NCBI GenBank assembly: GCA_016934265.1
Contig: JAFGTF010000078.1
Location: forward strand, 10,459-74,458
Direction of reading: 5' to 3'
DNA from: Spirochaetota bacterium
Lineage (GTDB): Bacteria > Spirochaetota > B62-G9 > DRHN01
DNA: 64,000 nt
Position numbers and translations under genes: made by a program. The notes under the pieces are model-generated. The model saw nothing but the letters and a program-made list of their open reading frames with translations, searched no databases and was not told the origin of the DNA. Shown one piece after another: positions 4,788 through 56,616 of the stretch (positions are counted from its first letter, which is position 1; every line of letters starts with the position of its first letter).

Positions 4788-6557
4788 ATGGATACAACGA
4801 AGCAGATGCAGTTTCTCGTGGGAAGCATACGCGAAGCGAAAAAAAAGATCGTGCTCGGGGCAATTGCGGCATCGGTGCTTTCGGTGCTGCTGTTCGTCGT
4901 GGGGTCCTACTATCTTCTTTTTCGCGTATTCGAGAGCATGACACGGGATTATTATGCCTCCCTTTTACGCGGCATCTCTTCCTTTCAGACCGATCTCATC
5001 GGCAAGGAGAACACGAGCGGCGATCTCAAACGTATCGCCTCGGAGTTGTCGTCGTACCGTGGGGTAAACGAGGTCTGGTTTGCCGACCGCTTCGGAAGGC
5101 TCATATTCGCGACGGATCGCGAGCTTTTTTCCCAATTCGAGAACAGGAGGCTTCCGTCGGAGTATTTCGAGAGCGTGCAGCATGTATGGCGTTTCGAAAA
5201 CGGCAGGCCGGTGCCGAAAATCGTGCCCGTTACGAAACTGCTGGGACAGAGATTTTCGATTCCGATTTATCCGTTCCGGACCGAGGGTTATGATTTCGTA
5301 ATGGGAATCGACGTCAACCGGTTCGTGTATCTCCCGGATAACTACCTCTTCATATTACTGTCCGCAGGATATTTCGTGGTATTCTCCGCGCTATTATTCT
5401 TTCCCCTGTTCTTCTGGGTGTCGAACAGGCTCGCAAGCATCGCCATGCGAATACCGATGATCGTCGGCTCGCAGGCTCCCGGTATTCGTGCTGCCGAGCA
5501 AAAACAAGAAAGGCCGTACGGGGTTCGCGAAGAGGAACCGGCTCCCGCAGGGTCCGAAGAGGAGGCCGAAAAGGCGGGATCGAATGAAACGGAGTCGGCC
5601 GGAGGTGTAGCCGGTAACGAGCCCGCGCCAGGAACCGGGAGCAATAAAAGACGGCGGCCTGAGAGAGTGTCCCCTGAGAAAGAGAGGGGGAAAGAGGAAA
5701 AAAAGACGCCTTTGGACGGTACATCCAAGGAGGGATCCTCCAAGGAAGGGGCATCCGCTGAGGTGGAGGCTGAAGCGGGGGAGACCGCCTTTGACACGGC
5801 CGCCGGCACACAAGACCTCGGCGAGGCGACAGCCTCGGCCGTGGCTCTTGCCTCCTTTGTAGAAAGAAAGAAGGCGTTGTTCATGCACGAAGACATCCAG
5901 CTGCCATTTATCAACGCGAGCTGCTACGTACATAACTCTTCCGGTGTGGACGGCTCCTATCTCTACAAGCACAAAACGGGCGAAAAGGTGTATTTCATCT
6001 CGTTTCTTCTTCCCTACGGGAGTGCGGAGGATGCACTGGCCGGTCTGAACGGCCTTCTGAACATATTCAACGAAGGGGTGGAGAAGGCGGGGCATGTGCG
6101 GGACTTTTCAAAAGGCCTCAACGAGTTCTGCCTCGAAAACGGTATGAAGCTGAACCTGTCGGTATTAGCCGTCGAAACGGGTGAGAAGAGTGTCCGCTAC
6201 AGCGCATTCGGTAGCGGGCGTGCCTTTTATTTGAAGAGCGGAAAAGACGAGCCGAAGGAGCTCGTGCTCGACCTGCCGGAACTGGGCGAGGTCGACGAAG
6301 ATGCGTTCAGCGAACATCCCACATTCGCCGATATCAGGTTTCAGCAAAACGATCTTTTTTTCATGTTGCCACAGGATATATTCCAGCCCGGCGGCGGCGG
6401 GGAAGCCGGGCCAGACGGTCCGGGGGCGCGTTTATCCGGTACGATGCGAGAGATGGGAGAAAAGAGCGCATTCGAGTGCAGTATGAGCATAGGACGCACG
6501 CTTCACGAAATATCAGGCTCCAGGCAGACAGGACTCGTAACGGTCAAATTCTTATGA
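4788..6557 (+). CDS. Membrane sensor-like protein: two TM segments around a ~150-aa extracytoplasmic domain, an E/K/S-rich disordered linker and a C-terminal globular domain (possibly a degenerate SpoIIE/PP2C-like domain)
   Basis: Hydrophobic segments at aa ~20-45 and ~185-210, a low-complexity acidic/Lys-rich linker, and a conserved-looking C-terminal domain. No confident family assignment can be made by eye. Confidence 0.4.
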   Translation: MDTTKQMQFLVGSIREAKKKIVLGAIAASVLSVLLFVVGSYYLLFRVFESMTRDYYASLLRGISSFQTDLIGKENTSGDLKRIASELSSYRGVNEVWFADRFGRLIFATDRELFSQFENRRLPSEYFESVQHVWRFENGRPVPKIVPVTKLLGQRFSIPIYPFRTEGYDFVMGIDVNRFVYLPDNYLFILLSAGYFVVFSALLFFPLFFWVSNRLASIAMRIPMIVGSQAPGIRAAEQKQERPYGVREEEPAPAGSEEEAEKAGSNETESAGGVAGNEPAPGTGSNKRRRPERVSPEKERGKEEKKTPLDGTSKEGSSKEGASAEVEAEAGETAFDTAAGTQDLGEATASAVALASFVERKKALFMHEDIQLPFINASCYVHNSSGVDGSYLYKHKTGEKVYFISFLLPYGSAEDALAGLNGLLNIFNEGVEKAGHVRDFSKGLNEFCLENGMKLNLSVLAVETGEKSVRYSAFGSGRAFYLKSGKDEPKELVLDLPELGEVDEDAFSEHPTFADIRFQQNDLFFMLPQDIFQPGGGGEAGPDGPGARLSGTMREMGEKSAFECSMSIGRTLHEISGSRQTGLVTVKFL

Positions 6558-7197: not shown

Positions 7198-8697
7198 ATG
7201 GCAAACGAGTTTGCCGGTGCGGTAAAACAGCTCGTTGCTGATAAAGGCATTTCCGAGGATCTGATACTGAAGACCATCGAGATGGCGCTGGTCGCTGCAT
7301 ACAAGAAGAAGTTCGGTACCGCGTCGAACGCGGAAACGGTAATCGACGAGGAGAATCATCTCGTCAAGATATATTCCAAGAAGGAAATCGTCGAGAAGGT
7401 GGAAGATCCCGTGTTCGAGATCAGTCTCGAAGAGGCCAAGAGACTGGTGGCGGGCGCCGAGCTCAAGGACGAGCTGCTCATCGAGGTCAAACCGGAGGAT
7501 TTCGGAAGGATAGCGGCGCAGACTGCGAAGCAGGTGGTCCGGCAGAGGCTCAAGGAGATTGAGAAGGACGTCGTGTACAACGAGTTCAAGCAGCGCGAGG
7601 GAGAAATGATCGTCGGATATTTCCAGCGCGAAAGAAACGGCACCATCTTTGTAAACCTAGGCAAGACCGAGGGTATAATGCCGAGATCGCAGCAGTCCCC
7701 GAGGGAACACTACAGGGTCGGGGACAGGATAAAGGCGCTCCTGCTGGAGGTGAGAAAGGACACGAAAGGGCCGCAGATCGTATTGTCCAGGGCCCATCCG
7801 GGCTTCGTCAAGAAGATATTCGAGCTCGAGGTGCCGGAAATCGCGGACGGCACGATAACGATTGAGAACATTGTTCGGGACCCCGGCTACAGAACCAAGG
7901 TTGCCGTCCACTCTCCGCGGGACGAGATCGATCCCGTAGGAGCCTGTGTCGGTCTGAAGGGTGTCCGTATCCAGGCGATCGTCGGAGAGCTCGAAGGCGA
8001 AAAGATTGACATATTGAAGTGGGACCCCGACATCAAACGCTACATCAGCAATGCGATGAATCCGGTCAAGATTTCGAGAATATTCCTTGTCGACGAGAGT
8101 ACGAAGGAGGCGATCATCGTGGTTTCCGAGTCGCAGCTCTCTATCGCGATCGGGCGGCAGGGACAGAATATCCGGCTCGTATCGAAGCTTGTCGGCTGGA
8201 AGCTCGATGTGATTACCGAGAAAGAGTTCGAGCAGTCCGAGTATGCCGAGTACGCGAGGAAGGCGGCGGACGAGCTGTTCGGCGGGGAAGAAAGCGAGGT
8301 CGTCACGCTTCGGGATATTCCGGGTCTCAAGGCCGAAACGGTCGATATTCTCGAGGGCGCGGGTATGCAGGAGATAGAGGACGTCATCAGCATGAAGCAG
8401 GAGGATCTCGTCGAGCTTGAGGGAATGACGAAAGAAATGGCCCAGGAATTTTTACACACAATTTCCGAGAACATCGAGATAGTCGAAGAGGAGATGATCA
8501 AATCCGATGAGTCTGTGACGGAATCGTCCGAAGACGAAGAAGAGAAGTATTATGAGTGCCCGAACTGCGGGGCCCGTATAGACGAGAGCATGCAGCAGTG
8601 TGCCTCGTGTGGGGTCGAGCTCGTATTCCAGGAGGAAGAAGAGGAGGGTGAGGAAAAGGAAAACGCTATGGAAGAGGGGGACGAACAAGAGGAGTAG
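7198..8697 (+). CDS. nusA: Transcription termination/antitermination factor NusA with an unusual C-terminal acidic tail and CxxC-x14-CxxC zinc-ribbon-like motif
   Basis: S1 domain (GEMIVGYFQRERNGTIFVNLGKTEGIMP), KH domains, and the rimP-nusA-infB context. GGAGG RBS at 7188-7192 followed by ATG at 7198. C-terminus contains YYECPNCGARIDESMQQCASCG followed by an E-rich tail. Confidence 0.9.
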   Translation: MANEFAGAVKQLVADKGISEDLILKTIEMALVAAYKKKFGTASNAETVIDEENHLVKIYSKKEIVEKVEDPVFEISLEEAKRLVAGAELKDELLIEVKPEDFGRIAAQTAKQVVRQRLKEIEKDVVYNEFKQREGEMIVGYFQRERNGTIFVNLGKTEGIMPRSQQSPREHYRVGDRIKALLLEVRKDTKGPQIVLSRAHPGFVKKIFELEVPEIADGTITIENIVRDPGYRTKVAVHSPRDEIDPVGACVGLKGVRIQAIVGELEGEKIDILKWDPDIKRYISNAMNPVKISRIFLVDESTKEAIIVVSESQLSIAIGRQGQNIRLVSKLVGWKLDVITEKEFEQSEYAEYARKAADELFGGEESEVVTLRDIPGLKAETVDILEGAGMQEIEDVISMKQEDLVELEGMTKEMAQEFLHTISENIEIVEEEMIKSDESVTESSEDEEEKYYECPNCGARIDESMQQCASCGVELVFQEEEEEGEEKENAMEEGDEQEE

Positions 8698-8786
8698 ACT
8701 CTTTTATTCCGGTTTTTCGGAATGTACGGCGGGGACGTGATGAAGGGCGATAGCATAGACAGTCAAGCGACAGTGCGGGGTAGTGT

Positions 8787-11120
8787 ATGAGAATTCATGA
8801 GTTAGCCAAAAAGCAGGAAATGCCGACGAGAGAGGTGTTGAAGGCACTGAGCACTCTCGGTATAAAGAACAAGAAATCGGCGAGCCTGCTGAGTAAAGAG
8901 GAGCTTGAGAAGTTTAAGGAATATATCAGCGCGAATAAAGACAACAAACCCGAAGTGTCCCTCATAAAGAAGAAACCGAAAGAGGAGGAAGAGGAACACA
9001 AGAAGATCGTCATCAAGAAGAAGAAGGTGGTAATACTCAAAAAGTCCCACAGGCCGGAACCCGCGAAGGAAGAACCGAAAGTAAAAAAACCGTTAAAAAA
9101 GCGTCCCGAGAGACCTGCGGCACAGCGGAAGCCGAAGGAAGCAGGTCAGAAAGGGGTAAAGGAAGATAAAAAACCGGTATACAAGCTGAAAGAAAAAAAG
9201 GCCACGACCGCGGACGAGACCAAGAAGGCTCCGTCGAAGAAGGGAATAAAAGACAGGAAACGTTACGGCTTCAGAAGGAGCAGGGATGATGAAGAGGGAA
9301 GCATCGACAAAATCCTGCAGCACAAACGAAAGGACCAGAGGATCGTCGCCAACCCGATTCCCAAAGAGATTGAAATCCTCGAAACGATCACGGTGGGAGA
9401 GCTCGCGCGAAAGATGAACCTCAAGGCGAGCGATCTCATCGCAAAGCTCATCACCCTCGGTGTAATGGCTCGTATCAACGATCAGATCGATTCGGAAACG
9501 GCAACGTTGGTGGCCGCGGAGTACGGCAGCCACACGAAGGTCGTCTCTCTCTACGAGGAGACCGTTATCGAGGAGGAGAAAGACAAACCGGAAGACCTCA
9601 TACACCGGCCGCCGGTCGTCACAATAATGGGTCATGTCGATCATGGAAAGACGAAGCTTCTCGACGTAATCAGGAACTCGAATATCGTAGGATCCGAGTC
9701 CGGCGGTATAACCCAGCATATCGGCGCGTACAGGGTTACAATCGGCGATAAGTCCATATGTTTTCTGGATACGCCCGGCCATGAGGCATTCACCATGATG
9801 CGGGCGCGCGGCGCGAAGGTGACCGATATCGTGGTACTCGTCGTTGCGGCCGACGACGGCGTTATGCCCCAGACCGTCGAGGCGATAGATCATGCAAAAG
9901 AGGCGGGCGTCCCGCTTGTCGTGGCGATCAACAAGATGGATATACACGGCGCCAATCCCGACAAGGTTAGAAATGAGCTCGCGGAAAGGGGCGTTGTACC
10001 CGAAGAGTGGGGGGGCGACACGCTCATGGTCGAGGTCTCCGCATTGAAAAAAACCGGGATAGACGGCCTTCTAGAAGCCATTCTCCTTCAGGCGGATATG
10101 CTGGACCTCAAGGCGAATCCCAACCGGCGTGCATCGGGGACGATAGTCGAGTCCAAGATCGATTCCGGCAGGGGTATCGTCACGACTGTTCTGATCCAGA
10201 ACGGCACCCTGAAACTCCAGTCGCCTTTTATCGCCGGCGTATTCCCCGGAAGAGTCAGGGCCATGTTCGACGAGTACGGAGAGGAGGTACGCGAGGCGCT
10301 TCCTTCGGATCCCGTCGAAGTCATCGGGCTCTCCGGTATGCCGGAGTCGGGCGATCCGTTCCAGGTAACCGAGCACGAGAAGTTCGCAAAGCAGATCGGG
10401 CAGAAACGCCAGGAGTTGAAACGGCTCGAAGAGTCGAAGAACGTGAAGAAGATCACACTCGAAAATCTCTACGAGCAGATCAAGGACGGGGAGGTCTTAG
10501 AGCTCAAGGTCATTATCAAGGCGGACGTACAGGGGTCCGTAGAGGCGTTGCAGGACTCGTTGAGCAAGCTTTCCACCTCACAGGTGAGGTTGAACTGCAT
10601 ACATACCGGCGTGGGTGCCATAAACAAGCCTGATATCATACTCGCATCCGCCTCGAATGCGATCATAATAGGATTTCGTGTCCGGCCCAACTCGCTGGCC
10701 GCCGAGATGGCGAAAAAGGAGAAGGTCGAAATCAAGCGGTACAGCATCATCTATGACGTGATAGACGATGTAAAATCGGCAATGGAGGGGCTGCTCGCAC
10801 CGGAGCTGCGGGAAGAGATCGTCGGAAATGCGGAAGTGAGAGCGGTCTTCAAGGTGCCGAAGCAGGGTAATGTGGCTGGCTCCTATGTGAAAAGCGGGAG
10901 GATCCAGAGAAGCGACAAAGTGCGAATAATCCGGGACGGCATCGAGCTGTATACGGGAACGATTTCGAGCCTCAGGAGATTCAAAGAGGACGCAAGAGAG
11001 GTGACGGAAGGGTTCGAGTGCGGGATCAAGGTGGAGAATTTCGACAATATCAAGGAAGGGGACGTCTTAGAGACCTTTGTAGTCCATGAGATAGCACGGA
11101 AGCTCGAGACAAAGGCCTGA
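8787..11120 (+). CDS. infB: Translation initiation factor IF-2
   Basis: G-domain motifs [24 protein letters not shown] and NKMD; K/E-rich low-complexity N-terminus; conserved position after nusA. Confidence 0.95.
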
Positions 11121-11176
11121 GACTGCATACGTGCAGGATTAGCCCGCACTATTTATTCGGACGAGTCTACGGTACA

Positions 11177-11536
11177 ATGAGCGCGAACTTTAAAAAGAGA
11201 AGAGTGGAGGAGCTCATAAAGGAAAAACTTTCGACTCTTCTCCTGAAAGGTTTGAAAGACCCGAGACTCGATGTCTTCATCACGGTTCTTGACGTAACGC
11301 TTTCCGGGGACGGCAGGTCGGCGAGGGTGACCGTATCCGTGATCGGCTCGCCGCAGGAGCGGAAGGCGGCGCTCAAGGGGCTCGAGAGCGCGCGCGGATA
11401 CATACAGATGAGGATCGGGAAGGGGATGAGGATCAAATACATTCCCCACCTCATTTTTCTTCTCGACGAGGGTACGGAAGAAAGGGTCAGATTCGTTCAC
11501 TGGATGAGCGAGATGGAAAGAAGGGACAATGAATGA
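11177..11536 (+). CDS. rbfA: Ribosome-binding factor A
   Basis: ~119 aa with the RbfA-like N-terminus (KRRVEELIKEKLSTLL...DPRL), immediately downstream of infB. Confidence 0.85.
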   Translation: MSANFKKRRVEELIKEKLSTLLLKGLKDPRLDVFITVLDVTLSGDGRSARVTVSVIGSPQERKAALKGLESARGYIQMRIGKGMRIKYIPHLIFLLDEGTEERVRFVHWMSEMERRDNE

Positions 11537-12582: not shown

Positions 12583-13520
12583 ACGGAGTGCTCCTCATCG
12601 ACAAGGAAGAGGGGATGACATCGTTCGAGACCGTGCGAAAGGTACGCGGTACGCTCGGCGTCAGGAAGGCGGGGCATGCGGGTACGCTCGACAAGGCGGC
12701 GAGCGGGCTTCTTCTCGTCTGTATCAACAGAGCCACGGCCGTTCAGAACATACTCATGGGGAGCAGCAAGCGATACAGCGCCGTCATTCGGCTCGGCACC
12801 GAGACAGACACCCTCGACAGGTACGGCCGGGTCGTGAAAACCGGACCGGTACCGCGTATCACAAAGGAAAAGATCGAACGGGCGCTTGAAAATTTTCGGG
12901 GTCCCATACGACAAACGCCGCCGCTGTTCTCGGCCATCCACCACGAAGGGGAACGCCTCTACAAGAAGGCGATGAAAGGTGAGCGGCCGAGCGTGAAGCC
13001 GCGGGATGTGGTCATACACGAGCTCGTGCTCTCGGGCTTTACGAACGACACCATCGAGATAGAGGCGTACGCATCGAAGGGAACGTACATACGGTCGCTT
13101 GGCAGGGACATCGCGGACAGTCTCGGTACCTGCGGCTCGCTCACATCGCTTCGAAGGCTTTCGATAGGTCCTTTCTCCGTGGTGAATGCGGTACGTCTGC
13201 GAGATATCGACGGACCGGAGGCGGTCGTCCCGCTTGAAGAGGCTCTCGGTTACCTGCCGGCAGTCGAAGTGGGTGAGGAGGAAGCTTCCATGGTTAAAAA
13301 CGGTATCCCGCCGGGCCGTGCGCTTAAGCGGCATTGGGCCGCTTTCGGCTCTTTGGAGCTTTCGGGTCCCCGGCCGGTTCCCGGTCTCGATTCTTTCTCC
13401 CGGGTGATGTCGGAGGGTCGCCTCATCGCAATTGTGACACGGGGCAGAGGCCTCGGTACAGCGGTCGGTACCGGGCAAAACACCGCACTGCGCTATTTCA
13501 AGGTATTCAAGGACGGGTAA
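12573..13520 (+). CDS. truB: tRNA pseudouridine(55) synthase TruB
   Basis: GVLLIDKEEGMTSFE...GHAGTLDKAASGLLLV is the TruB catalytic motif. Likely GTG start at 12573, preceded by a GGAGG/AAGGAG RBS and overlapping the nrnA stop; the track ORF is extended upstream in another frame of nrnA. Confidence 0.8.
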   Translation: MAVDGVLLIDKEEGMTSFETVRKVRGTLGVRKAGHAGTLDKAASGLLLVCINRATAVQNILMGSSKRYSAVIRLGTETDTLDRYGRVVKTGPVPRITKEKIERALENFRGPIRQTPPLFSAIHHEGERLYKKAMKGERPSVKPRDVVIHELVLSGFTNDTIEIEAYASKGTYIRSLGRDIADSLGTCGSLTSLRRLSIGPFSVVNAVRLRDIDGPEAVVPLEEALGYLPAVEVGEEEASMVKNGIPPGRALKRHWAAFGSLELSGPRPVPGLDSFSRVMSEGRLIAIVTRGRGLGTAVGTGQNTALRYFKVFKDG

Positions 13521-24063: not shown

Positions 24064-24328
24064 CGTGTTTCTTGTACAGGGAGGCTCAATCGGAGACATT
24101 CACGCAAGTCGCCGGAGTACACATACAGCGTTTTGCGGTGAGCATGACGCCGTCCTATGAATCCCGGTAAAACGGACTGCTCCGGGATGAGGGAAGGCGC
24201 CGCCTCGAACCGGAATCGCCAACCGTTGCGAAAATAAAAGGCCGGGCAAAAAGGAGGCGGGAGATCCCGATACCGAGACGGCGGGCGGGATGGTTCCTGC
24301 TACTTCGAAGGTGGATAGGGAGGACGAT

Positions 24329-24652
24329 ATGGAAAGACACGGCTCGGTAATAAAGGTTAAGCCGGAAATGCTCGAGGAATACAGACGGCACCATAAGAAC
24401 GTATGGCCGGAGGTACTCGACATGATAAAAAGGTGCAATATACGAAACTACTCCATATATCACAAGGACGGCTACCTGTTCAGCTATTTCGAGTACCACG
24501 GGAACGATTTCGCTTCCGATATGGAGAGGATGGCGGCCGACCCGAAGACCCTGGAATGGTGGGCGATCATGAAGCCGATGCAGCAGCCGCTCGAAACAAG
24601 GGCACAAAACGAGTGGTGGGCCGAAATGGAAGAGGTGTTTCATATGGAGTGA
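24329..24652 (+). CDS. RhaM/YiiL-family mutarotase (L-rhamnose mutarotase-like; here plausibly a fucose mutarotase)
   Basis: ~107 aa; pattern (IKVKPEMLEEYRRHHKNVWPEVLDMIK...NYSIY...WWA.M...M) resembles E. coli RhaM. AGGGAGG RBS 5 nt before the ATG at 24329; the track ORF is extended upstream. Confidence 0.6.
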   Translation: MERHGSVIKVKPEMLEEYRRHHKNVWPEVLDMIKRCNIRNYSIYHKDGYLFSYFEYHGNDFASDMERMAADPKTLEWWAIMKPMQQPLETRAQNEWWAEMEEVFHME

Positions 24653-28706: not shown

Positions 28707-29243
28707 TCGAAGCTCCCCACATCGATTATAACAGATTCGTGGGGTCGGGCCATATAAATTATCGCAGAAGAATGAATATGATCTTATACAGTGCAGGTGC
28801 CGCTATTTGGGAATGCGCACATACCGATTGGTAACAATCAAGGAGGATGCCCTGTAAAGGCTTTTTCCGTGTACATAGTTTCCGGGCCCGTATGAGATTC
28901 AAAACGATGATTTTCATGCGTTGCCGCCGTGAAACGGTAAAGACAGTGTTACGGAGTTCTTTTTTGTGTATACGTTTATCCGTACAGACCGGTTTAAAGA
29001 GAGTAGAATATACTACTGCCTGCCGGCCGACGAGCGTCGGCCGCATACCGTATACGTACCTGCAACAAGTAACGTAAAAACAGGACGGGTTTCATCGGCA
29101 CCACCGTTTGCCGTCGCACGGGTTGACGTCGCGTAGGCCGCAGCCGTACTCCGTTTATTGATTGTACCGTTTTATATTTCATTGTATTATTTCGATCGGC
29201 TGATATAATTAAGACTAATCCAACATGGAGTGTGGAGGAACCC

Positions 29244-30020
29244 ATGAAGGTCGAAAACAGGCGGATACTGGCGGTGGGGGCCCACCCGGACGATGTCGAG
29301 TTCATGTGCGGCGGCACGCTCAAGCTGCTTGCCGAGGAGGGATACGAGATATTCATCGGTATCATGGCAAACGGGGACTGCGGATCGATGGTGGAACCCC
29401 CGGAGAGTATCACGAGGATCAGGCGGCATGAAGCCCTCGACGCGGCCAAGCTTCTCGGCGCGGAGCTGTACCCCCTCGGGGAGCTCGATCTCCGGATTAC
29501 CCCCGACGACCGGACAAAGGAGGCCACAACGGAGCTCGTCAGGTCGGTGGACCCGCTTTTGGTATTTACCCATCCCCACGAGGACTACATGGCGGATCAC
29601 GAGGTGTGCTCGAGGCTCGTCAGGCTCGCCTGCTTTTGCGCCCCGATACCGAACTATACCACGCGTGCGCCGATACCCGCGCCGAGGACGTACGGTATTC
29701 CGTATCTCTACTACTGGTCCCCCTTCGAAGGTCTCGACATATACGGCGGGTTCGTTCCCCAATCGGTGCTTGTCGACATCACGCCGGTCGTTACCTTCAA
29801 AACGGATCTTCTGACCTGCCACAAGAGCCAGAGGGACTGGCTCTTGGAGCAGCACGGCATTGACCGGTACACCGAGCTCATGAAACAGACAGGCAGACGC
29901 TACGGAAAGGAGTGCGGAGTGGAGTTTGCCGAGGGATTCCGCCAGCATCTCGGTAACGCCTATCCGCGCGACAATATGCTGGCGCAGATACTGGGTGCAC
30001 GTGTGAAGGAAAAGAAATAA
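29244..30020 (+). CDS. PIG-L / LmbE-family N-acetylglucosaminyl deacetylase
   Basis: RILAVGAHPDDVEFMCGGTL zinc-binding motif and HEDY..DH. GGAGG RBS 6 nt upstream of the ATG at 29244 (the track ORF starts at GTG 29232). Confidence 0.8.
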   Translation: MKVENRRILAVGAHPDDVEFMCGGTLKLLAEEGYEIFIGIMANGDCGSMVEPPESITRIRRHEALDAAKLLGAELYPLGELDLRITPDDRTKEATTELVRSVDPLLVFTHPHEDYMADHEVCSRLVRLACFCAPIPNYTTRAPIPAPRTYGIPYLYYWSPFEGLDIYGGFVPQSVLVDITPVVTFKTDLLTCHKSQRDWLLEQHGIDRYTELMKQTGRRYGKECGVEFAEGFRQHLGNAYPRDNMLAQILGARVKEKK

Positions 30021-30032
30021 GAGAGGAGGGTA

Positions 30033-31067
30033 ATGATGAAGAGCTATAAAGTCGGGATAGTAGGGCTCGGCTGGGTGGCAGGCGCACACCTGCGTACGTT
30101 CGCCGCGCTGCCGTACTACGAACCGGTGGCAGTCATGTCGAGGAGGAAGCTCGATCCCGAGGAGATACGCCGGGAGTACGGGGTGAACGTGACGGTATAT
30201 AACGACTACGACCGGTTCCTCGCGCACAAGGGTTTGGAGATAGTCGATATCTGTACCCCTCACCCGTTTCATCCCGATGCGACGGTGAAGGCGGCGAACG
30301 CCGGAAAGCATCTCATCGTCGAGAAGCCGCTCTCCCTTACCTTCGAGGACAGCAAGCGTATGCTGGAGGCGGTGAAGAAAAACAAAGTCAAAACATCGGT
30401 CGGATTCTGGATCAGGCTTATGTCAGTCACGAAAGCTATGAAATCGATAATAGACAAGGGCCTCATCGGCGATATCTACTACGCGGAGTGCGATTACTTC
30501 CATGGTATCGGCCCCTGGTATGGCCAGTTCGAGTGGAACATCAAGAAGGATATGGGCGGCAGCTCGCTTCTCACCGCAGGCTGTCATTCGCTCGATATTA
30601 TGCTTTATCTGCTATCGGAGCCGGTGGAGGAGGTGTTCTCCTATTCCACGAAGAACCCGAACCCGGTGTACGCCCCCTACGAATACGATACGACCTCGAT
30701 TACGCTGCTCAAGTTCGTGAAAAAGGGGCTGCTCGGCAAGGTCGCGTCGGTGACGGACTGCATGCAGCCGTATGTCTTCAACATGAACGTCATCGGATCC
30801 GACGGCTCGATCGACAACGAGCGATTCTACAGCAAGAAGATCGACGGATTGCTCGATTGGAGCACTCTCGACGTGATGCGGGTCGATTCCGGAGACGTTG
30901 CCCGCCACTCATACAACGAGCAGTTCCTTCATTTCGCGGAATGCCTCGATACCGGAAAGGAGGCGATAAACAGCCTCGAAGCCGCCTATGAGACGCATAG
31001 GGTGATATTCGCCGCGGACAGGTCCGCGGAAACGGGAAAACCGGTACGGATTTCCGAGTTCTCGTAA
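30033..31067 (+). CDS. Gfo/Idh/MocA-family NAD(P)-dependent oxidoreductase
   Basis: N-terminal Rossmann motif KVGIVGLGWVAGAHL and EKPLSLT...; GGAGGG RBS. Confidence 0.8.
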   Translation: MMKSYKVGIVGLGWVAGAHLRTFAALPYYEPVAVMSRRKLDPEEIRREYGVNVTVYNDYDRFLAHKGLEIVDICTPHPFHPDATVKAANAGKHLIVEKPLSLTFEDSKRMLEAVKKNKVKTSVGFWIRLMSVTKAMKSIIDKGLIGDIYYAECDYFHGIGPWYGQFEWNIKKDMGGSSLLTAGCHSLDIMLYLLSEPVEEVFSYSTKNPNPVYAPYEYDTTSITLLKFVKKGLLGKVASVTDCMQPYVFNMNVIGSDGSIDNERFYSKKIDGLLDWSTLDVMRVDSGDVARHSYNEQFLHFAECLDTGKEAINSLEAAYETHRVIFAADRSAETGKPVRISEFS

Positions 31068-49877: not shown

Positions 49878-51119
49878 ATGCGAGAACGTGCGCTCTATGC
49901 AGAGGAGTATGTACGCCTGAAAAGCGCGTATACGCATGAAAAGGCGAGTATCACGCTCGAGGGGGATGCGGAGATAGTCAACATCCGTTTCGAATCAAAG
50001 GCCTCTTCTTTTTTGCCGGGAGCAGAGGAGTACCGGTGCGATAATCACAACCGCTATTTCGTGGCCCAGATGGAGATGAACAGGGAGTTTTTCGTACCGC
50101 CCCTGAACGAGATTCTGCACGTACTCGACTCCGAGATAGAGGAAAACCGTGTGTTTTCCTACCCGGTGTTCAAAAAACGGTCGAAAACGAAAGCGAACGG
50201 CGTGATTGTTCTCGTGCACGGGCTGAACGAAAGATCCTGGGACAAATACCTGCCCTGGGCGAAACGGCTTCTGGAGCGCTCCGGCAGGGCGGTGTTGCTG
50301 TTTCCCATCGCCTTTCACATGAACCGCGCGCCGTTGAAATGGAGCGACCGGCGACTCATGAGCATGGTGTCGAAGGAGAGAAAAAAGATCTTTCCCACAG
50401 TGACGGCTTCCACCCTTGCGAACGCGGCGGTATCAACGAGGCTTCAGCTCTGTCCCCCCCGTTTTTTCTGGTCGGGCCTGCAATCGTACTTCGACGTCAT
50501 ACGGATCGTGAAACAGGTGCAAGACGGCCTGCATCCCTGTATCGAAAGAGACGCGACTGTCGATTTTTTCGGGTATTCCATAGGAGCCTTTCTGACCCAG
50601 CTCATACTCATGGCGGACCTCGACCGGATGCTTCCGGATTCACGGCTTTTCATTTTTTGCGGCGGCCCGACGGTGAACCGGATGTCTCCCGTGTCCCGCT
50701 ATATTCTCGACAGTGAGGCGAATATCGCCCTGTATTCCTATTTCATCGAAAATTTCGAGGAGGAGCTCAAGAGAGACGCCCGGATGCGCGAATTCTTCAA
50801 TGACGCGACGCCGGAGGGCCGGTATTTCAGGGCGATGCTCGACTACCACAAGATGGCGGGCCTGCGGGAATCGCGGTTTCATGCTCTTTCCGGGCGTATC
50901 ATGGCGGTCGGTCTCGAGAAGGACGACGTCATCCCCAAGTACGAGATCGAGAACACCCTGAGAGGAAGGAACCGGGATATACCGATCAGGATCGAGACTG
51001 TTGATTTCCCGTATCGATATACGCATGAAAATCCCTTTCCCGCGGGAAGAAGGCACGCAAAGGCGGTGGATGAAAGCTTTACCGAGGTATTGGATCTCGC
51101 GGCCGATTTCCTCCGATAG
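49878..51119 (+). CDS. Alpha/beta-hydrolase-fold protein
   Basis: VIVLVHGLNERSWDKY (oxyanion HG region) and a GYSIG nucleophile elbow. Confidence 0.5.
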   Translation: MRERALYAEEYVRLKSAYTHEKASITLEGDAEIVNIRFESKASSFLPGAEEYRCDNHNRYFVAQMEMNREFFVPPLNEILHVLDSEIEENRVFSYPVFKKRSKTKANGVIVLVHGLNERSWDKYLPWAKRLLERSGRAVLLFPIAFHMNRAPLKWSDRRLMSMVSKERKKIFPTVTASTLANAAVSTRLQLCPPRFFWSGLQSYFDVIRIVKQVQDGLHPCIERDATVDFFGYSIGAFLTQLILMADLDRMLPDSRLFIFCGGPTVNRMSPVSRYILDSEANIALYSYFIENFEEELKRDARMREFFNDATPEGRYFRAMLDYHKMAGLRESRFHALSGRIMAVGLEKDDVIPKYEIENTLRGRNRDIPIRIETVDFPYRYTHENPFPAGRRHAKAVDESFTEVLDLAADFLR

Positions 51120-52333: not shown

Positions 52334-52753
52334 GGGCTATAGAAAGGGAGACGTGAGTAGGGAGAGATAATCATACGTAATCGTGTAATATTCAGAATAT
52401 ACGTTTAGGTTTCAGGATATAAATATTTTAAAATCGCAATGAGAGGTTTAATCTTTTATTAACCCGAGAGGAAATAAGATGGCTTTGTAAGATAATTAAG
52501 AGGGTTATGTTGATAAAATAGAATATTAATCCTTTACATAACTTTTTGTTTCGCTATCATTGAATAGTAGATAGGGGATTTAATAAACAGTTAAGGAGGC
52601 TTAATGAGAGTGGCGGTTTTTACCTAACGAGGAAGGTTCATATAAGATAATGTTGTAATTTTTTGATTATTGAGGGTTAATGTGTTGAACTTATCTGATA
52701 TGATAATATTCATACCCTGTTATTTACAATAAGAATTAATCCAGAGAAGCAGA

Positions 52754-53719
52754 ATGAAACCCGAGACTAAACCATTATTCAATCAAAAACGGAATATTGT
52801 TGAACAATTCAGCCTCTCCGAATCAATAGTCGTATACCCCGACGACTGTCTTGATATGCTAAAAAATATCCCCGATGAATCGATCCAACTAATCGTTACA
52901 TCACCTCCATATAATATTGGCAAAGAGTACGAGAAGAAGTTACATCTCGAATTGTATATCCAACAACAAGCCCAGGTAATTACCGAATGTGTACGGACAT
53001 TGTCTCCTAAAGGTAGTATATGCTGGCAAGTCGGTAACTATGTTGACAGAGGGGCAATCATACCTTTGGATACAGCTCTATATCCTATCTTCACGAATTT
53101 GCACCTTAGTATGAGGAATCGTATTATCTGGCATTTTGAACACGGGCTACATTGTAGTCGTCGCTTCTCTGGGCGCTACGAAACGATTATATGGTTCACC
53201 AAGTCAGATGAGTATGTTTTTAATCTGGATGCAGTACGAGTTCCTCAAAAATATCCCGGAAAAAAATATTTTAAAGGTCCCAAGGTTGGCCAATATTCAT
53301 GTAACCCACTTGGTAAGAATCCTGGGGATATGTGGGTAATCCCAAATGTCAAGAGCAATCATATTGAGAAGACAGAACATCCTTGCCAATTTCCTGTTGA
53401 ATTAATTGAACGCTTGGTACTTTCACTTACAAATGAGGGGGATTGGGTGATTGATCCTTTCTTGGGAACCGGGACATCGATAATTGCTGCCATTCGTCAT
53501 GGTAGGCGAGGCGCTGGTGCAGAAACTGTTTCAAAGTATATTAATATAGCGAAGCGGAGGATTAATCAGGAAATTGAAGGAACATTGAGGACCCGCCCAA
53601 TGGACAGACCGGTTTTTAATCCCATAAGTTCTGGAAATAGCCTGACTTTTTGTCCATGGGAAAAGAACAATGAACAGAATAAATTATTTGAGAAAAACCA
53701 GAAATATAAAAAAGAATAA
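52754..53719 (+). CDS. Type II DNA methyltransferase (beta-class, SPPY motif; N4-cytosine or N6-adenine)
   Basis: IQLIVTSPPYNIGKEY catalytic motif IV near the N-terminus, SAM-binding D.F.GTGTS near the C-terminus (beta-class order); low-GC gene. Confidence 0.8.
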   Translation: MKPETKPLFNQKRNIVEQFSLSESIVVYPDDCLDMLKNIPDESIQLIVTSPPYNIGKEYEKKLHLELYIQQQAQVITECVRTLSPKGSICWQVGNYVDRGAIIPLDTALYPIFTNLHLSMRNRIIWHFEHGLHCSRRFSGRYETIIWFTKSDEYVFNLDAVRVPQKYPGKKYFKGPKVGQYSCNPLGKNPGDMWVIPNVKSNHIEKTEHPCQFPVELIERLVLSLTNEGDWVIDPFLGTGTSIIAAIRHGRRGAGAETVSKYINIAKRRINQEIEGTLRTRPMDRPVFNPISSGNSLTFCPWEKNNEQNKLFEKNQKYKKE

Positions 53720-53723
53720 ATCT

Positions 53724-54335
53724 ATGAAAATTACAGAAATATATTCACATTTAAATGGGCTTGAATTTTTAATCGTTCATAAGGAAACTCTTTGGAAGGA
53801 GATACAATCTGTTATTAAGGATGTTAATGCAAACCGATGTAGAACTAAGGTTTCTAAAGAAAAGACAATGAAAGGAAAGTTACTATATAGCCCGGTAGAT
53901 ATGAACGCGGCTTTCAAAAAGCTGCTTCGAGAAAAATCATGGGATGAAAGCCGGGTCAGCTATTGGGTTACGAGAAGCGAAAAATTGATCCGAAAGACAC
54001 TTACGATGTCGGCAGAAGAGCAGAAGAGAGAGATAGAATCAGCAGGTGAGATACCGATCTTCAGTTACAATCAAACAGACTTTGTCAAGGATAGAGTGGC
54101 TGTTGAGGTGCAATTCGGTAAATATTCGTTCGTCGCTTATGATCTTTTTGTTAAACATCTTGCTTTCTATGTGGGTGATCGTATTGATGTTGGGGTCGAG
54201 ATTCTTCCGATGAAGTCACTACAAAGCCAGATGAGTTCAGGTGTCCCATATTTTGAGGGGGAATTTTATAATGTTGTTCGTCAGGGGAGAGGGGTGCCGG
54301 CAGTTCCTCTCGTGCTTATAGGTATAGAATCATAA
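53724..54335 (+). CDS. Type II restriction endonuclease, BglII/BstYI-like
   Basis: KDRVAVEVQFGKYSFVAYDLFV and PLVLIGIES resemble BglII, recalled from memory as ...LVEVQFSNYPF... and ...PIRLVGLIED. ~203 aa; starts 5 nt after the methyltransferase stop. Confidence 0.6.
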   Translation: MKITEIYSHLNGLEFLIVHKETLWKEIQSVIKDVNANRCRTKVSKEKTMKGKLLYSPVDMNAAFKKLLREKSWDESRVSYWVTRSEKLIRKTLTMSAEEQKREIESAGEIPIFSYNQTDFVKDRVAVEVQFGKYSFVAYDLFVKHLAFYVGDRIDVGVEILPMKSLQSQMSSGVPYFEGEFYNVVRQGRGVPAVPLVLIGIES

Positions 54336-54672
54336 GAGTTTAATATATAAATCGGTGCTTGGTTTTACCTGTTGAATTCAGCGAATAAAGGAGGAAGGAA
54401 GCAGCAGTGTTTTGGTAAGAGTGCGTAGTAACGTGGAAGCCTCGTGATACAATCATTTCGTTTCGGCCCGAGGGTTCCTGAAGTCGCCGCCACTGGTCCA
54501 AGATACCTGCTTCCGATCGACCCGCGCGTCTTTTCGCATGCGCTTTTGCTTCCTGCAGCCCGGTTTCATCTCCATCAAAGGAATCGGCCGATCTGAGGAA
54601 TCGGCCGATGGAAGAGTCCTGTATGGTGGGAAAGAAGACTGTCTTCGGGCCTATGCTTTTGACACGGCACAG

Positions 54673-54705
54673 GAGAAAAAACCGGGCATGCCGCAGGGCC
54701 CGGTT
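54673..54705 (-). terminator. Intrinsic terminator downstream of the first STAS-like paralog (minus strand)
   Basis: On the minus strand, AACCGGGC-loop-GCCCGGTT forms an 8-bp GC stem followed by TTTTTTCTCC (plus-strand gagaaaaaaccgggcatgccgcagggcccggtt). Confidence 0.55.
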
Positions 54706-54726: not shown

Positions 54727-55095
54727 TCACTCGCGAAACCACTCTTTGGCCTCGCCCAGCGATCCGAATACCTTCGTCTCGAAGGAACTCTTGGTCAATT
54801 CGGTTACCGTCTCGAACATTTGCGAGAAGCTGTACTCGAGGTAGGCGGGAGCTATTATCGCCGTTTTGCCGCCCCCCCTGCGGGCCCGCTGCTTGTCCCA
54901 GATATCGACGAGCCTCTTCACCGTCCCGGGCGAAAGGTTGATCATCTGCGCGAAAGAGAAATCCCATATAACATACGGCGTATGCACACCGCCGAAGAAC
55001 GATTGCGCGGTCTCCAGCAACTCTTCCGTCGATATGTCCCCGAAGCATTCCTGGATCGTATAGTTCTTCTTCGGAAAAATTATTGTCTCAATCAT
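54727..55095 (-). CDS. STAS-like (SpoIIAA / anti-sigma-antagonist-like) small protein, paralog 1 of 3
   Basis: 122 aa; shares with its two neighbours the pattern ..LT..E.L......F.......LWDF..........A..R.......R.GGKTAI.AP..LEY.......T.......FE..VF....EA..W. Confidence 0.45.
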   Translation of the reverse strand: MIETIIFPKKNYTIQECFGDISTEELLETAQSFFGGVHTPYVIWDFSFAQMINLSPGTVKRLVDIWDKQRARRGGGKTAIIAPAYLEYSFSQMFETVTELTKSSFETKVFGSLGEAKEWFRE

Positions 55096-55295
55096 CGATC
55101 GGCCGATCCTGTTTATTCCGTAGCCCGAAAAACGCACCGAATTCTCTGTGCCCCCGGGCGTATCCGGCCGGTTCGCGAGGCTTTATGAAGATGTGAAATA
55201 GTGCGCGGCCGCCCCTGCAATTACGGCGTTACGCCCGCATCTCTGTATCTATTCTAACGCAGTGAACGGAAGAACGCAAATATATTATGAAATAA

Positions 55296-55670
55296 TCACT
55301 CCTTTGAAAACAGCCACTGCCCGGCTTCTTCCGGTGTCCTGAACACCTTTGTTTCGTAGGGGAGCCCGCCTATACCGGCCCATGTCTGAATCATTCGGCC
55401 CAAGCCGTACTCGAGGTCCAACGGCGCTACAATCGCCGTTTTTCCGCCCTTTCTTTTGTTTCCGAGCGTGCGTATTGTCTCATAGATACGTCTCAACGCA
55501 TCCGTTGAAATATTTGTGGCCGAAAAACCGTCAAGCTGCCAAAGTGTGAATTTTGTAGGAGATTCTTTATAGAAAGAACGTATCGCCTCCAGGCACTCCT
55601 GTTCCGTCAAGGCACTGGAGCATTTGAAGACGGTCAGATCGTTTCGGTTGTCTACGACTTTTTCAACCAT
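55296..55670 (-). CDS. STAS-like small protein, paralog 2 of 3
   Basis: 124 aa; NDLTVFKCSSALTEQECLEAIRSFY...GGKTAIVAPLDLEYG...VFRTPEEAGQWL. The N-terminal pattern resembles the ..l.i.l.GeLd...a..l...l start of anti-sigma antagonists. Confidence 0.45.
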   Translation of the reverse strand: MVEKVVDNRNDLTVFKCSSALTEQECLEAIRSFYKESPTKFTLWQLDGFSATNISTDALRRIYETIRTLGNKRKGGKTAIVAPLDLEYGLGRMIQTWAGIGGLPYETKVFRTPEEAGQWLFSKE

Positions 55671-55700
55671 TGATGTGCCGTTTGACTTCTTATATTTATC

Positions 55701-56072
55701 TCACTGCGACAGAAGCCACAGCCGGGCTTCGTCGGTTGATCTAAACACCCTGAACTCGAATGGAATTTGCGTCAAATCGGTCATGGTTTGAAATATACGT
55801 ATCATCCCGTATTCGAGATCCGTCGGCGCCGCTACCGCGGTTTTTCCCCCCTCCCGTACGGATCCTATTTTCTTTACCACCGAAACGAACCGGTGCACGG
55901 CTTCTGTAGGTATGTTTTTCACGGAAGCGTCTACAAAGTCCCATAAGTTGTGTTTCGTGGGGGGGTGGTGATAAAGCGACTGCAAATTATCGAGAAGCTC
56001 CTGCTCCGTCAAATCGCCTGAGCAGGTGATTATTGTCAGATCGTTTTCATTGTCGTGCGTTATAGTAACCAT
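55701..56072 (-). CDS. STAS-like small protein, paralog 3 of 3
   Basis: 123 aa; NDLTIITCSGDLTEQELLDNLQSLY...GGKTAVAAPTDLEYG...VFRSTDEARLWL. Confidence 0.45.
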   Translation of the reverse strand: MVTITHDNENDLTIITCSGDLTEQELLDNLQSLYHHPPTKHNLWDFVDASVKNIPTEAVHRFVSVVKKIGSVREGGKTAVAAPTDLEYGMIRIFQTMTDLTQIPFEFRVFRSTDEARLWLLSQ

Positions 56073-56616
56073 TGACGGGCCTTTTTTAAAGCAGAGCGTT
56101 TACGGTCGTCCCTGCAATAGCTGCAGCTCTGTTTACGAGTCTTTTTACCTCATATCAGGATACTATTCAGTTTCCCGAATCGTCTTTTTTATGAGTTTCT
56201 ATCCTTTTTTTATATTTTAGCGTAAAAATGAGAAAAAACAATATGAAATACTGTGAAGACAGATCTTACACCGAACGCCCCGGATCCGGTAACCGACTAT
56301 TAGACTCCGGGAATAGGTGAGCGTAATGAATTCTCGGATCATGGAGACTGGCGGGTGATACTGATATAAATAAAACAAAATAATAAATCACTTGAATAAA
56401 ATAAATAAATGATACATAATAGATAATCTATAGGGCCTGCTATCGCCGATTCCTTCCAGGCAGGGTGGTGCAATAATCGGCTTTATCGACATTACCATAC
56501 ATATAGTGCTTGTACGTACGTGGAAGAAAGAAGTAGTTGATATCGAACAATCCCCTGTGAAGAAGGGCGTTTCAGTGTGCCGTTGTTGTTTCTATCCAAA
56601 TCAGTACGAATAGAAG

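Follow-up and report, generated by a model that had tools for sequence, protein, structure and literature searches.

Three clustered genes of a Spirochaetota genome encode members of a widespread, uncharacterised SpoIIAA-like protein family related to PF11964

A 64-kb window of a metagenome-assembled genome from the Spirochaetota (Spirochaetes) contains three consecutive minus-strand genes, designated here A (JXQ30_09445), B (JXQ30_09440) and C (JXQ30_09435), each of which is annotated by NCBI as "hypothetical protein". The window denotes this entire stretch of DNA. The encoded proteins A, B and C add new members to a family of the STAS clan that is already known but uncharacterised. They are related to PF11964 (SpoIIAA-like, formerly DUF3478) and belong to a divergent sub-branch that is missed by the current Pfam and NCBIfam models. 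Judged by sequence and by genomic linkage they are not canonical anti-sigma antagonists, and they are not part of a known defence system. In the reading that we regard as likely, the genes are old paralogs, each maintained independently, of a widespread SpoIIAA/STAS-fold family; they lie in a core-chromosome setting, are unlinked to their neighbours and would encode small binding modules that operate without a local partner switch.

The open reading frames (ORFs) of the three genes were confirmed, and the pairwise identities of the encoded proteins are 46% for A and B, 37% for A and C, and 30% for B and C. The first-pass annotation of this DNA had described three consecutive paralogs, and this description stands. 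When scored against a hidden Markov model (HMM) of the family, every copy gives an E-value between 1e-39 and 1e-47 (4e-47 for gene A and 7e-46 for gene B), which is far beyond chance, and the paralogy is therefore real. The reading frame of gene C is open up to a GTG at 55137; the ATG that yields 122 aa was taken as the start because the orthologs and the NCBI record (JXQ30_09435, 122 aa) begin there. The shared motifs listed earlier are a good fit to A and B but only an approximate one to C, the versions found in C being NYTIQECFGDISTEELL, IWDF, RGGGKTAIIAPAYLEYS and VFGSLGEAKEWF. Gene B begins 30 nt downstream of the stop codon of gene A, and these two genes are probably co-transcribed. The gap between genes B and C is 200 nt.

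Structures were predicted for the products of genes A and C using AlphaFold2. The model of A, obtained from an alignment of 5 sequences, has a predicted local distance difference test score (pLDDT) of 81 and a predicted TM-score (pTM) of 0.75. The corresponding values for C, with an alignment of 42 sequences, are 90.7 and 0.85. The order of secondary structure elements assigned by DSSP is beta1-beta2-alpha1-beta3-alpha2-beta4-alpha3-beta5-alpha4 in both models, which is the order of the SpoIIAA-like fold (PMC2954212). The significant PDB matches returned by Foldseek for the two models are nearly all STAS-fold proteins, with E-values down to 9e-6 and TM-scores of ~0.55-0.70. They include 2q3l and 2ook (DUF3478), SpoIIAA (1h4y, 1h4z and 1thn), RsfB (8ih8), RsbV (6m36), TM1442, RsbS and SiaC, the last two being among the weaker matches. 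The best match for the model of A is 2q3l, and for the better model, that of C, SpoIIAA ranks above 2q3l. Genes A and C are thus predicted to encode proteins with the SpoIIAA/STAS fold. The earlier term "STAS-like" is borne out at the level of the fold by two confident models and their Foldseek matches, and not at the level of sequence, where no match to canonical STAS proteins was found.

Proteins A, B and C have no match in Pfam (E ≤ 10, searched with each paralog), NCBIfam, PADLOC or PHROGs. A word-indexed protein search returned two relatives only. An exhaustive HMMER search returned 4130 representatives of 50%-identity clusters at E ≤ 1e-3 and 1040 at E ≤ 1e-10, and nearly all of these relatives are single-domain proteins of ~125 aa. 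Among the 106 close homologs, which match the family HMM at E < 1e-23, PF11964 is matched by 44 at E ≤ 0.01 and its gathering score of 25 bits is exceeded by P0103 (32.3 bits), P0098 (28.9 bits) and P0080 (27.4 bits). PF11964 is the sole sequence family reached; the STAS families are not among the Pfam families matched by the 106 homologs. Alignment of the family profile with SpoIIAA using hhalign was not significant (E 0.44, probability 0.1%). Three homologs of 248-279 aa (P0058, P0098 and P0103) are natural two-domain proteins. The N-terminal domain of each belongs to the same subfamily as the window proteins, here called the GGKTA subfamily, and the second domain is more typically PF11964-like, with the pattern ILVDLRE...KIAVxIP...F...A.EWL.

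The invariant residues of the GGKTA subfamily are G19, T39, W44-D45, R73-x-G-G76-K-T-A79 and D85-L-E-[YF]88-G89-x-x-R92-M. The segment R-x-G-G-K-T-A falls in the turn between alpha2 and beta4, and D-L-E-[YF]-G-x-x-R-M lies where alpha3 starts. The GGKT sequence was considered as a Walker A motif (P-loop) and rejected, since the glycine is at -7 rather than -6 and the segment lies in a helix-to-strand turn, not in a strand-loop-helix, as judged from sequence and model. A further set of residues toward the C-terminus is conserved in the 106 homologs: A79 in 104, F110 in 105, A116 in 104, W119 in all 106 and L120 in 73. By secondary structure element, and not by residue-level structural alignment, these residues match the "second cluster" of DUF3478, which consists of an alanine in beta4, a phenylalanine in beta5 and Ala/Trp/Leu in alpha4 (Ala88, Phe114, Ala120, Trp123 and Leu124; PMC2954212). 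Given this correspondence, the pattern VFR...EA..WL picked out in the first-pass annotation is a hallmark of the PF11964-type fold.

The resemblance to the structurally characterised DUF3478 proteins of Shewanella (YP_749275.1, 2ook; YP_001095227.1, 2q3l) extends to the stand-alone form of ~125 aa, the order of elements, the C-terminal hallmark (beta4 Ala, beta5 Phe and A-x-x-W-L in alpha4) and the lack of a conserved kinase neighbour. DUF3478 is itself functionally uncharacterised. The window proteins differ in matching neither the Pfam model nor the sequences of 2ook and 2q3l. Their subfamily differs in having no recognisable conservation of the switch-region residues, in its own motifs (T39, W44-D45, R73-x-G-G-K-T-A and D85-L-E-[YF]-G-x-x-R92-M) and in the presence of clustered paralogs in some lineages.

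For DUF3478, a role as a CRAL-TRIO-like carrier, in which alpha2 and alpha3 make up an open/closed lid, has been proposed as a prediction (PMC2954212), and proteins A, B and C could by analogy be soluble carriers of hydrophobic small molecules. The facts that PF11964 is the only sequence family reached and that 2q3l is the top match for the model of A agree with this proposal, as do the long amphipathic alpha2 and alpha3 helices of the models. The switch-region cluster of DUF3478 comprises His6, Gly7, Gly27, Thr30, His31, Tyr34 and AAWDD in alpha2 (PMC2954212). A tyrosine at position 34 in alpha1 is kept in 86 of the 106 homologs and recalls the cavity residue Tyr34; it is the sole possible switch-region counterpart, and the equivalence is one of numbering rather than of structural alignment. 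The other switch and cavity residues are not recognisably conserved, SpoIIAA is placed above 2q3l for the better model, and the function is only predicted for DUF3478 itself (PMC2954212). A carrier role is consequently considered unlikely.

The genomic surroundings of the family were surveyed next to those of the window genes. A narrow family alignment search yielded 4 genome loci and 21 metagenome loci, and the 126 ORFs found within 4 kb of the homologs in 18 loci were pooled for annotation. The contigs that carry P0009 and P0004 are too short to reveal their surroundings. Each Pfam family is represented in at most 3 of the 126 neighbours, and no SpoIIAB-type kinase, PP2C phosphatase, sigma factor, type II secretion system (T2SS) or defence family recurs across the 18 loci. 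ABC_tran was found in 2 of the 126 and GGDEF in 1. Most loci have metabolic or housekeeping neighbours, and examples are listed in Table 1. In the window, none of the 40 scanned proteins is a SpoIIAB/RsbW-type kinase, PP2C phosphatase or sigma factor; the only ATPase-type matches are the T2SS ATPase, SMC, SRP54 and a Mg-chelatase/ComM-type protein. Likewise, a crude scan for PP2C motifs in the window, covering all six frames, gave nothing. The earlier remark that no kinase or anti-sigma partner is adjacent was therefore confirmed and now extends to these 40 proteins.

These results bear on the possibility that the three proteins are phosphorylation-controlled partner-switch antagonists of the SpoIIAA/RsbV kind, with a kinase and a PP2C phosphatase encoded elsewhere and the three paralogs serving different inputs. 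The fold is that of SpoIIAA and RsbV, and complexes with SpoIIAB, RsbW and UsfX are among the best structural matches. In addition, the residue at the phospho-serine position of SpoIIAA had been reported in the first-pass annotation as replaced, and this is not supported: B and C have S55 at the alpha2 N-cap, A has P55-T56 there, and Ser/Thr is present at position 55 in 71% of the family and at 55 or 56 in 86%. Distant kinases are known to act on orphan STAS proteins, for example in the HsbA and SiaC systems. The pattern [ST]-x-x-[DEQ] is also a standard helix N-capping box, and the enrichment of Ser/Thr in the 55-58 pattern would be explained equally well by helix capping without phosphorylation. 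The canonical antagonists (SpoIIAA, RsbV and RsfB; PF01740/PF13466) are alike in fold (TM 0.55-0.70), size and the frequent Ser/Thr at the alpha2 N-cap. They differ in that the window family has no detectable sequence homology to them, no match to a STAS Pfam model, no significant profile alignment with SpoIIAA, no DSSG-type context around the Ser/Thr, and no SpoIIAB/RsbW kinase, PP2C phosphatase or sigma factor that is adjacent in the window or recurs in the 18 loci. A canonical partner switch is thus judged improbable.

Other small STAS-fold proteins were compared as well. MlaB, SiaC (DUF1987) and RsbS act by binding a partner, which is the ABC ATPase MlaF, the diguanylate cyclase SiaD and the stressosome, respectively. 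The window family differs from them in that ABC transporter, GGDEF or RsbR/RsbT genes do not recur beside it, and the structural similarity of these proteins to the window models is weaker than that of SpoIIAA or DUF3478.

The first-pass annotation had described the genes as a tandem triplication, and a local, recent event of this kind is contradicted by the divergence of the copies. The proportion of synonymous differences between the paralogs (pS) is 0.68-0.84, so that synonymous sites are saturated, and the protein identities are 30-46%. Every copy is closer to homologs elsewhere. For protein C, identity amounts to 71-74% with L006 copy 3, L023 copy 2 and P0166 (orthologs in loci L006, L023 and L010) and to only 30-37% with A and B. 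The best homolog elsewhere is P0005 for B (60%) and P0156 (L006 copy 2) for A (54%). Ratios of nonsynonymous to synonymous substitution (dN/dS) between orthologs are 0.07-0.35, indicative of purifying selection, with values of 0.07-0.08 for gene C and its orthologs. The saturation of pS together with the closer relatives elsewhere indicates long-maintained paralog lineages, an A/B-type and a C-type, and no recent local triplication. Clustered copies are also present in L006 (3), L023 (2), L034 (2) and L012 (2, divergent), and clustered paralogs occur in ~5 of ~25 distinct loci overall; in the available sequence of ~20 others, one copy was seen. The A-type and C-type occur together in the window, L006 and L023, and not together in L010/L011 or L038. 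No degraded fourth copy or remnant of the family was found in the three intergenic gaps, where matches are at noise level only.

As first described, the cluster is flanked by a BglII-family restriction-modification (R-M) pair on one side and a T2SS-like cluster on the other. The R-M pair is placed between a nitroreductase gene and gene C. It is convergent with gene C and separated from it by ~390 nt that contain a terminator-like hairpin. Its GC content is 0.38-0.40 and its GC at third codon positions (GC3) 0.36, in a window with a mean GC of 0.535, and the flanking spacer at 52334-52753 has a GC of 0.31. The three family genes have GC contents of 0.495, 0.499 and 0.534. The "lower-GC segment" noted earlier consequently holds for the R-M genes and for 56073-56616 (0.39), and not for A, B and C, which are near the window mean. 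The R-M pair looks like a separate, recent foreign insertion into a core chromosome; the rest of the window carries rimP-nusA-infB-truB-ribF-pnp, SMC, ffh, rimM-trmD and rnhB.

The proximity of the R-M pair raises the question of whether A, B and C are accessory or regulatory parts of a defence island, tied to the BglII-like R-M system or to defence generally. The pair abuts gene C, and its methyltransferase and endonuclease match PADLOC-DB v2 as a type II R-M system. A second case is L006. Inserted between its family copies 2 and 3, at 8538-11535, are a complete PD-Lambda-5 system (E 3e-37 for the A subunit and 6e-87 for the B subunit, a D12 methyltransferase) and a SNase-domain protein. DUF4062 and HTH_17 genes follow farther downstream, suggesting that this relative has a variable or defence region there. 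L001 has a toxin-antitoxin-like pair upstream. Against such a tie, A, B and C have no match in PADLOC-DB v2, no homologs were found on annotated plasmids or phages, and the base composition of the R-M pair is far from that of the three genes, which converge on it across the intervening terminator-like hairpin. In the pooled PADLOC scan, defence matches are essentially confined to L006, with one or two weak ones elsewhere among the 126 neighbours, and 2 defence-adjacent loci of ~18 would be within chance adjacency to islands. Given the varied contexts and this near-confinement, the adjacency in the window and L006 is most plausibly coincidental or due to a shared variable region, and a role in defence is very unlikely.

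On the other flank, the T2SS-like cluster (prepilin peptidase, secretin and GspE/F/G) is encoded on the plus strand. Gene A and the prepilin-peptidase gene diverge from one AT-rich intergenic region of 544 nt, as might be expected if A, B and C were accessory factors of the T2SS-like cluster that share a divergent promoter region. The T2SS families (Secretin, T2SSE/F/G and Peptidase_A24) do not recur beside homologs in the 18 other loci, and the T2SS genes are somewhat lower in GC than the family genes. This explanation is given almost no credence. The suggestion that the genes form a novel partner-switch module or an accessory or defence system is not supported either: the family is common (4130 representatives), its neighbours are variable with no recurrent partner, R-M, defence and T2SS genes do not recur in the 18 loci, and it is essentially unrelated to the genes beside it.

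The preferred reading, that of ancient paralogs acting as binding modules, may be set out as follows. The members would be stand-alone cytoplasmic proteins of ~125 aa that form a distinct sub-branch of PF11964, and the T2SS-like cluster would simply be transcribed divergently from a shared intergenic region. By analogy with other single-domain STAS-clan proteins, A, B and C may act as small binding modules. From the STAS topology we infer that the beta4-alpha3 segment (P83-x-D-L-E-Y-G-x-x-R) and the alpha2 N-cap adjoin at the C-terminal edge of the parallel sheet. SpoIIAA, SiaC and MlaB bind their partners via that face, and since the conserved features of the window family lie there, A, B and C are most likely binding modules through the same face. 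The binding face would be made up of the N-terminus of alpha2 and the beta4-alpha3 loop, and would hold either a protein partner or a ligand that is small or hydrophobic. Action through a locally encoded kinase/phosphatase partner switch would not be involved. The paralogs probably form homo- or heterodimers, as suggested by their clustering, by the natural fusions P0058, P0098 and P0103, and by DUF3478, which is dimeric in solution (PMC2954212).

Several points weigh against this reading. The family profile and the bridging members match no PDB sequence meaningfully, 2q3l and 2ook included. Because A, B and C have no direct match to PF11964, they are tied to DUF3478 by fold and transitive homology only. 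The 106 homologs have no conserved histidine in beta1/alpha1 and no AAWDD in alpha2; with the switch-region residues not recognisably conserved, transfer of the idea of a hydrophobic-ligand carrier is weakened. The GGKTA subfamily is functionally uncharacterised. The search for partners in this genome covers 64 kb, and partners may be encoded elsewhere. Finally, in 2 of the closest multi-copy loci, the window and L006, a defence system abuts the family genes, although a link to defence islands is unlikely.

A more speculative version, to which we attach a low probability, is that the GGKTA subfamily constitutes an undescribed STAS-clan branch with a function of its own. A/B-type and C-type members would form heteromeric pairs or sets, an idea that derives from the joint presence of both types in the window, L006 and L023 and from the natural two-domain fusions. 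These assemblies would be switched by phosphorylation of the Ser/Thr at the alpha2 N-cap, or by an anionic or nucleotide ligand at the invariant R-x-GGKT / DLEYG-x-x-R site, under a kinase or signal encoded elsewhere. If true, this would constitute a kinase-unlinked, STAS-only signalling module.

Non-coding elements around the cluster were also examined. Judging from the sequence, the hairpin and U-tract that follow gene C probably serve the cluster as an intrinsic terminator. The minimum free energy fold contains the stem, and the 71-nt segment has an unremarkable z-score; the hairpin was not called by a consensus terminator scanner because its loop is 10 nt. A sigma-70-like match with 9/12 matching positions, which is a consensus match only, is found at 55308->55279 on the minus strand at the start of the B-C region, and a separate promoter for gene C in this region is possible. 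No Rfam match was found near A, B and C, the divergent region at 56073-56616 included.

Two sets of short repeats were observed in the same region. The 16-nt motif ATTGCAGGGRCGRCCG is present on the minus strand in exactly 2 copies in the 64 kb, at 55206-55221 (111-126 nt upstream of gene C) and 56103-56118 (31-46 nt upstream of gene A), and is absent from 36/36 homologous loci. It is possibly a shared operator or a chance occurrence; the significance test is circular, the pattern having been derived from the same two copies. The sequence ATTGCAGGG was considered as a sigma-54 promoter and rejected by eye for lack of GG at -24; it has 2 copies in the window and is found in 0/36 loci. Tandem 17-mers (ATCAAAGGAATCGGCCG / ATCTGAGGAATCGGCCG) are located at 54574-54607, downstream of the gene C terminator, and an inverted copy that is 80% complementary and contains GATCGGCCGATC is found at 55097-55116, immediately before the start codon of gene C.

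In related loci, a non-coding stretch of ~130 nt directly upstream of A-type genes is conserved in 4 contigs, in which the downstream proteins are 50-85% identical. This A-type leader contains GATA-like inverted elements (TTATCTTAA / GATAAGAAA) and a promoter-like pair, TTGCTA...TACTAAT. It was considered as a riboswitch or leader RNA and rejected: it matches nothing in Rfam, its consensus structure is weak (-4 kcal/mol) and covariation is absent. It does not align with the region upstream of gene A in the window. Two small ORFs precede family genes in some relatives. One encodes 79 aa ending in ...RYKELIKRCEEEKLI* and lies ~30 nt upstream of A/B-type genes (L006 7729-7968, L003 3-122, L037 3-59); it is absent from the window and the other long loci and has no Pfam, PADLOC or PHROGs match. 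The other is a conserved stretch that reads like the C-terminus of a small CxxC protein (...LQEAVRRGYTPCSVCRP..*) and is found directly upstream of C-type genes in 4 contigs, with no clear counterpart in the window. Both were rejected as conserved partner genes, since they occur in a few related contigs and not in the window.

Elsewhere in the window, a full-length DUF6051 protein (E 6e-129), which belongs to an uncharacterised, conserved family, is encoded at 49878-51119 (+) and followed by a GNAT acetyltransferase and the nitroreductase just upstream of the R-M insert. ORFs that have no Pfam match at E ≤ 1e-6 are located at 4788-6557 (+; 589 aa), 24155-24643 (-; 162 aa) and 29187-30311 (-; 374 aa), and the two on the minus strand may be spurious.

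Table 1. Locations of the family genes, of nearby features in the window, and of features and neighbours at loci with homologs (locus designations precede coordinates outside the window)
Feature	Location	Strand	Description
Gene A (JXQ30_09445)	55701-56072	minus	ORF, 123 aa; predicted SpoIIAA-like fold; A-type member of the GGKTA subfamily
Gene B (JXQ30_09440)	55296-55670	minus	ORF, 124 aa; paralog of gene A
Gene C (JXQ30_09435)	54727-55095	minus	ORF, 122 aa; divergent C-type paralog, own orthogroup
Type II R-M pair	52754-54335	plus	N4/N6 DNA methyltransferase (PF01555) overlapping BglII-family endonuclease (PF09195; PADLOC REase_II, E 7e-96)
Hairpin and U-tract	54672-54700	minus	8-bp stem AACCGGGC/GCCCGGTT, ~25 nt past gene C stop; likely terminator
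B-C intergenic region	55096-55295	minus	200 nt, GC 0.52
A/T2SS divergent intergenic region	56073-56616		544 nt, AT-rich, GC 0.39
A-type leader stretch	L001 2428-2557; L017 2526-2655; L018 91-220; L006 6952-7081		Upstream of A-type genes
CxxC stretch	L023 ~390-560; L006 ~12600-12740; L010 ~560-640; L038 ~230-300		Appears intact only in L023; appears degraded in L010 and L038
Neighbours of homolog	L001		Upstream toxin-antitoxin-like pair (DUF6290 and 140-aa protein)
Neighbours of homolog	L004		ECF transporter, pantothenate kinase, ABC_ATPase, GGDEF
Neighbours of homolog	L008		Ankyrin, MacB-ABC
Neighbour of homolog	L010		RRM protein
Neighbour of homolog	L038		Hemerythrin
Neighbours of homolog	L039		Mevalonate pathway, aconitase
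Neighbour of homolog	L040		Upstream hybrid histidine kinase/response regulator; other kinase class than SpoIIAB/RsbW

The role of the DUF3478-type family is such that any experimental handle on it would be new, and this locus offers no special leverage for that purpose. The three "hypothetical proteins" can now be annotated as SpoIIAA-like (PF11964-related) proteins of the STAS clan. The GGKTA subfamily, with about 1000 representatives of 50%-identity clusters (E ≤ 1e-10), is missed by the Pfam and NCBIfam models, and a dedicated model would annotate its members. It comprises conserved A-type and C-type paralog lineages in the Spirochaetota.

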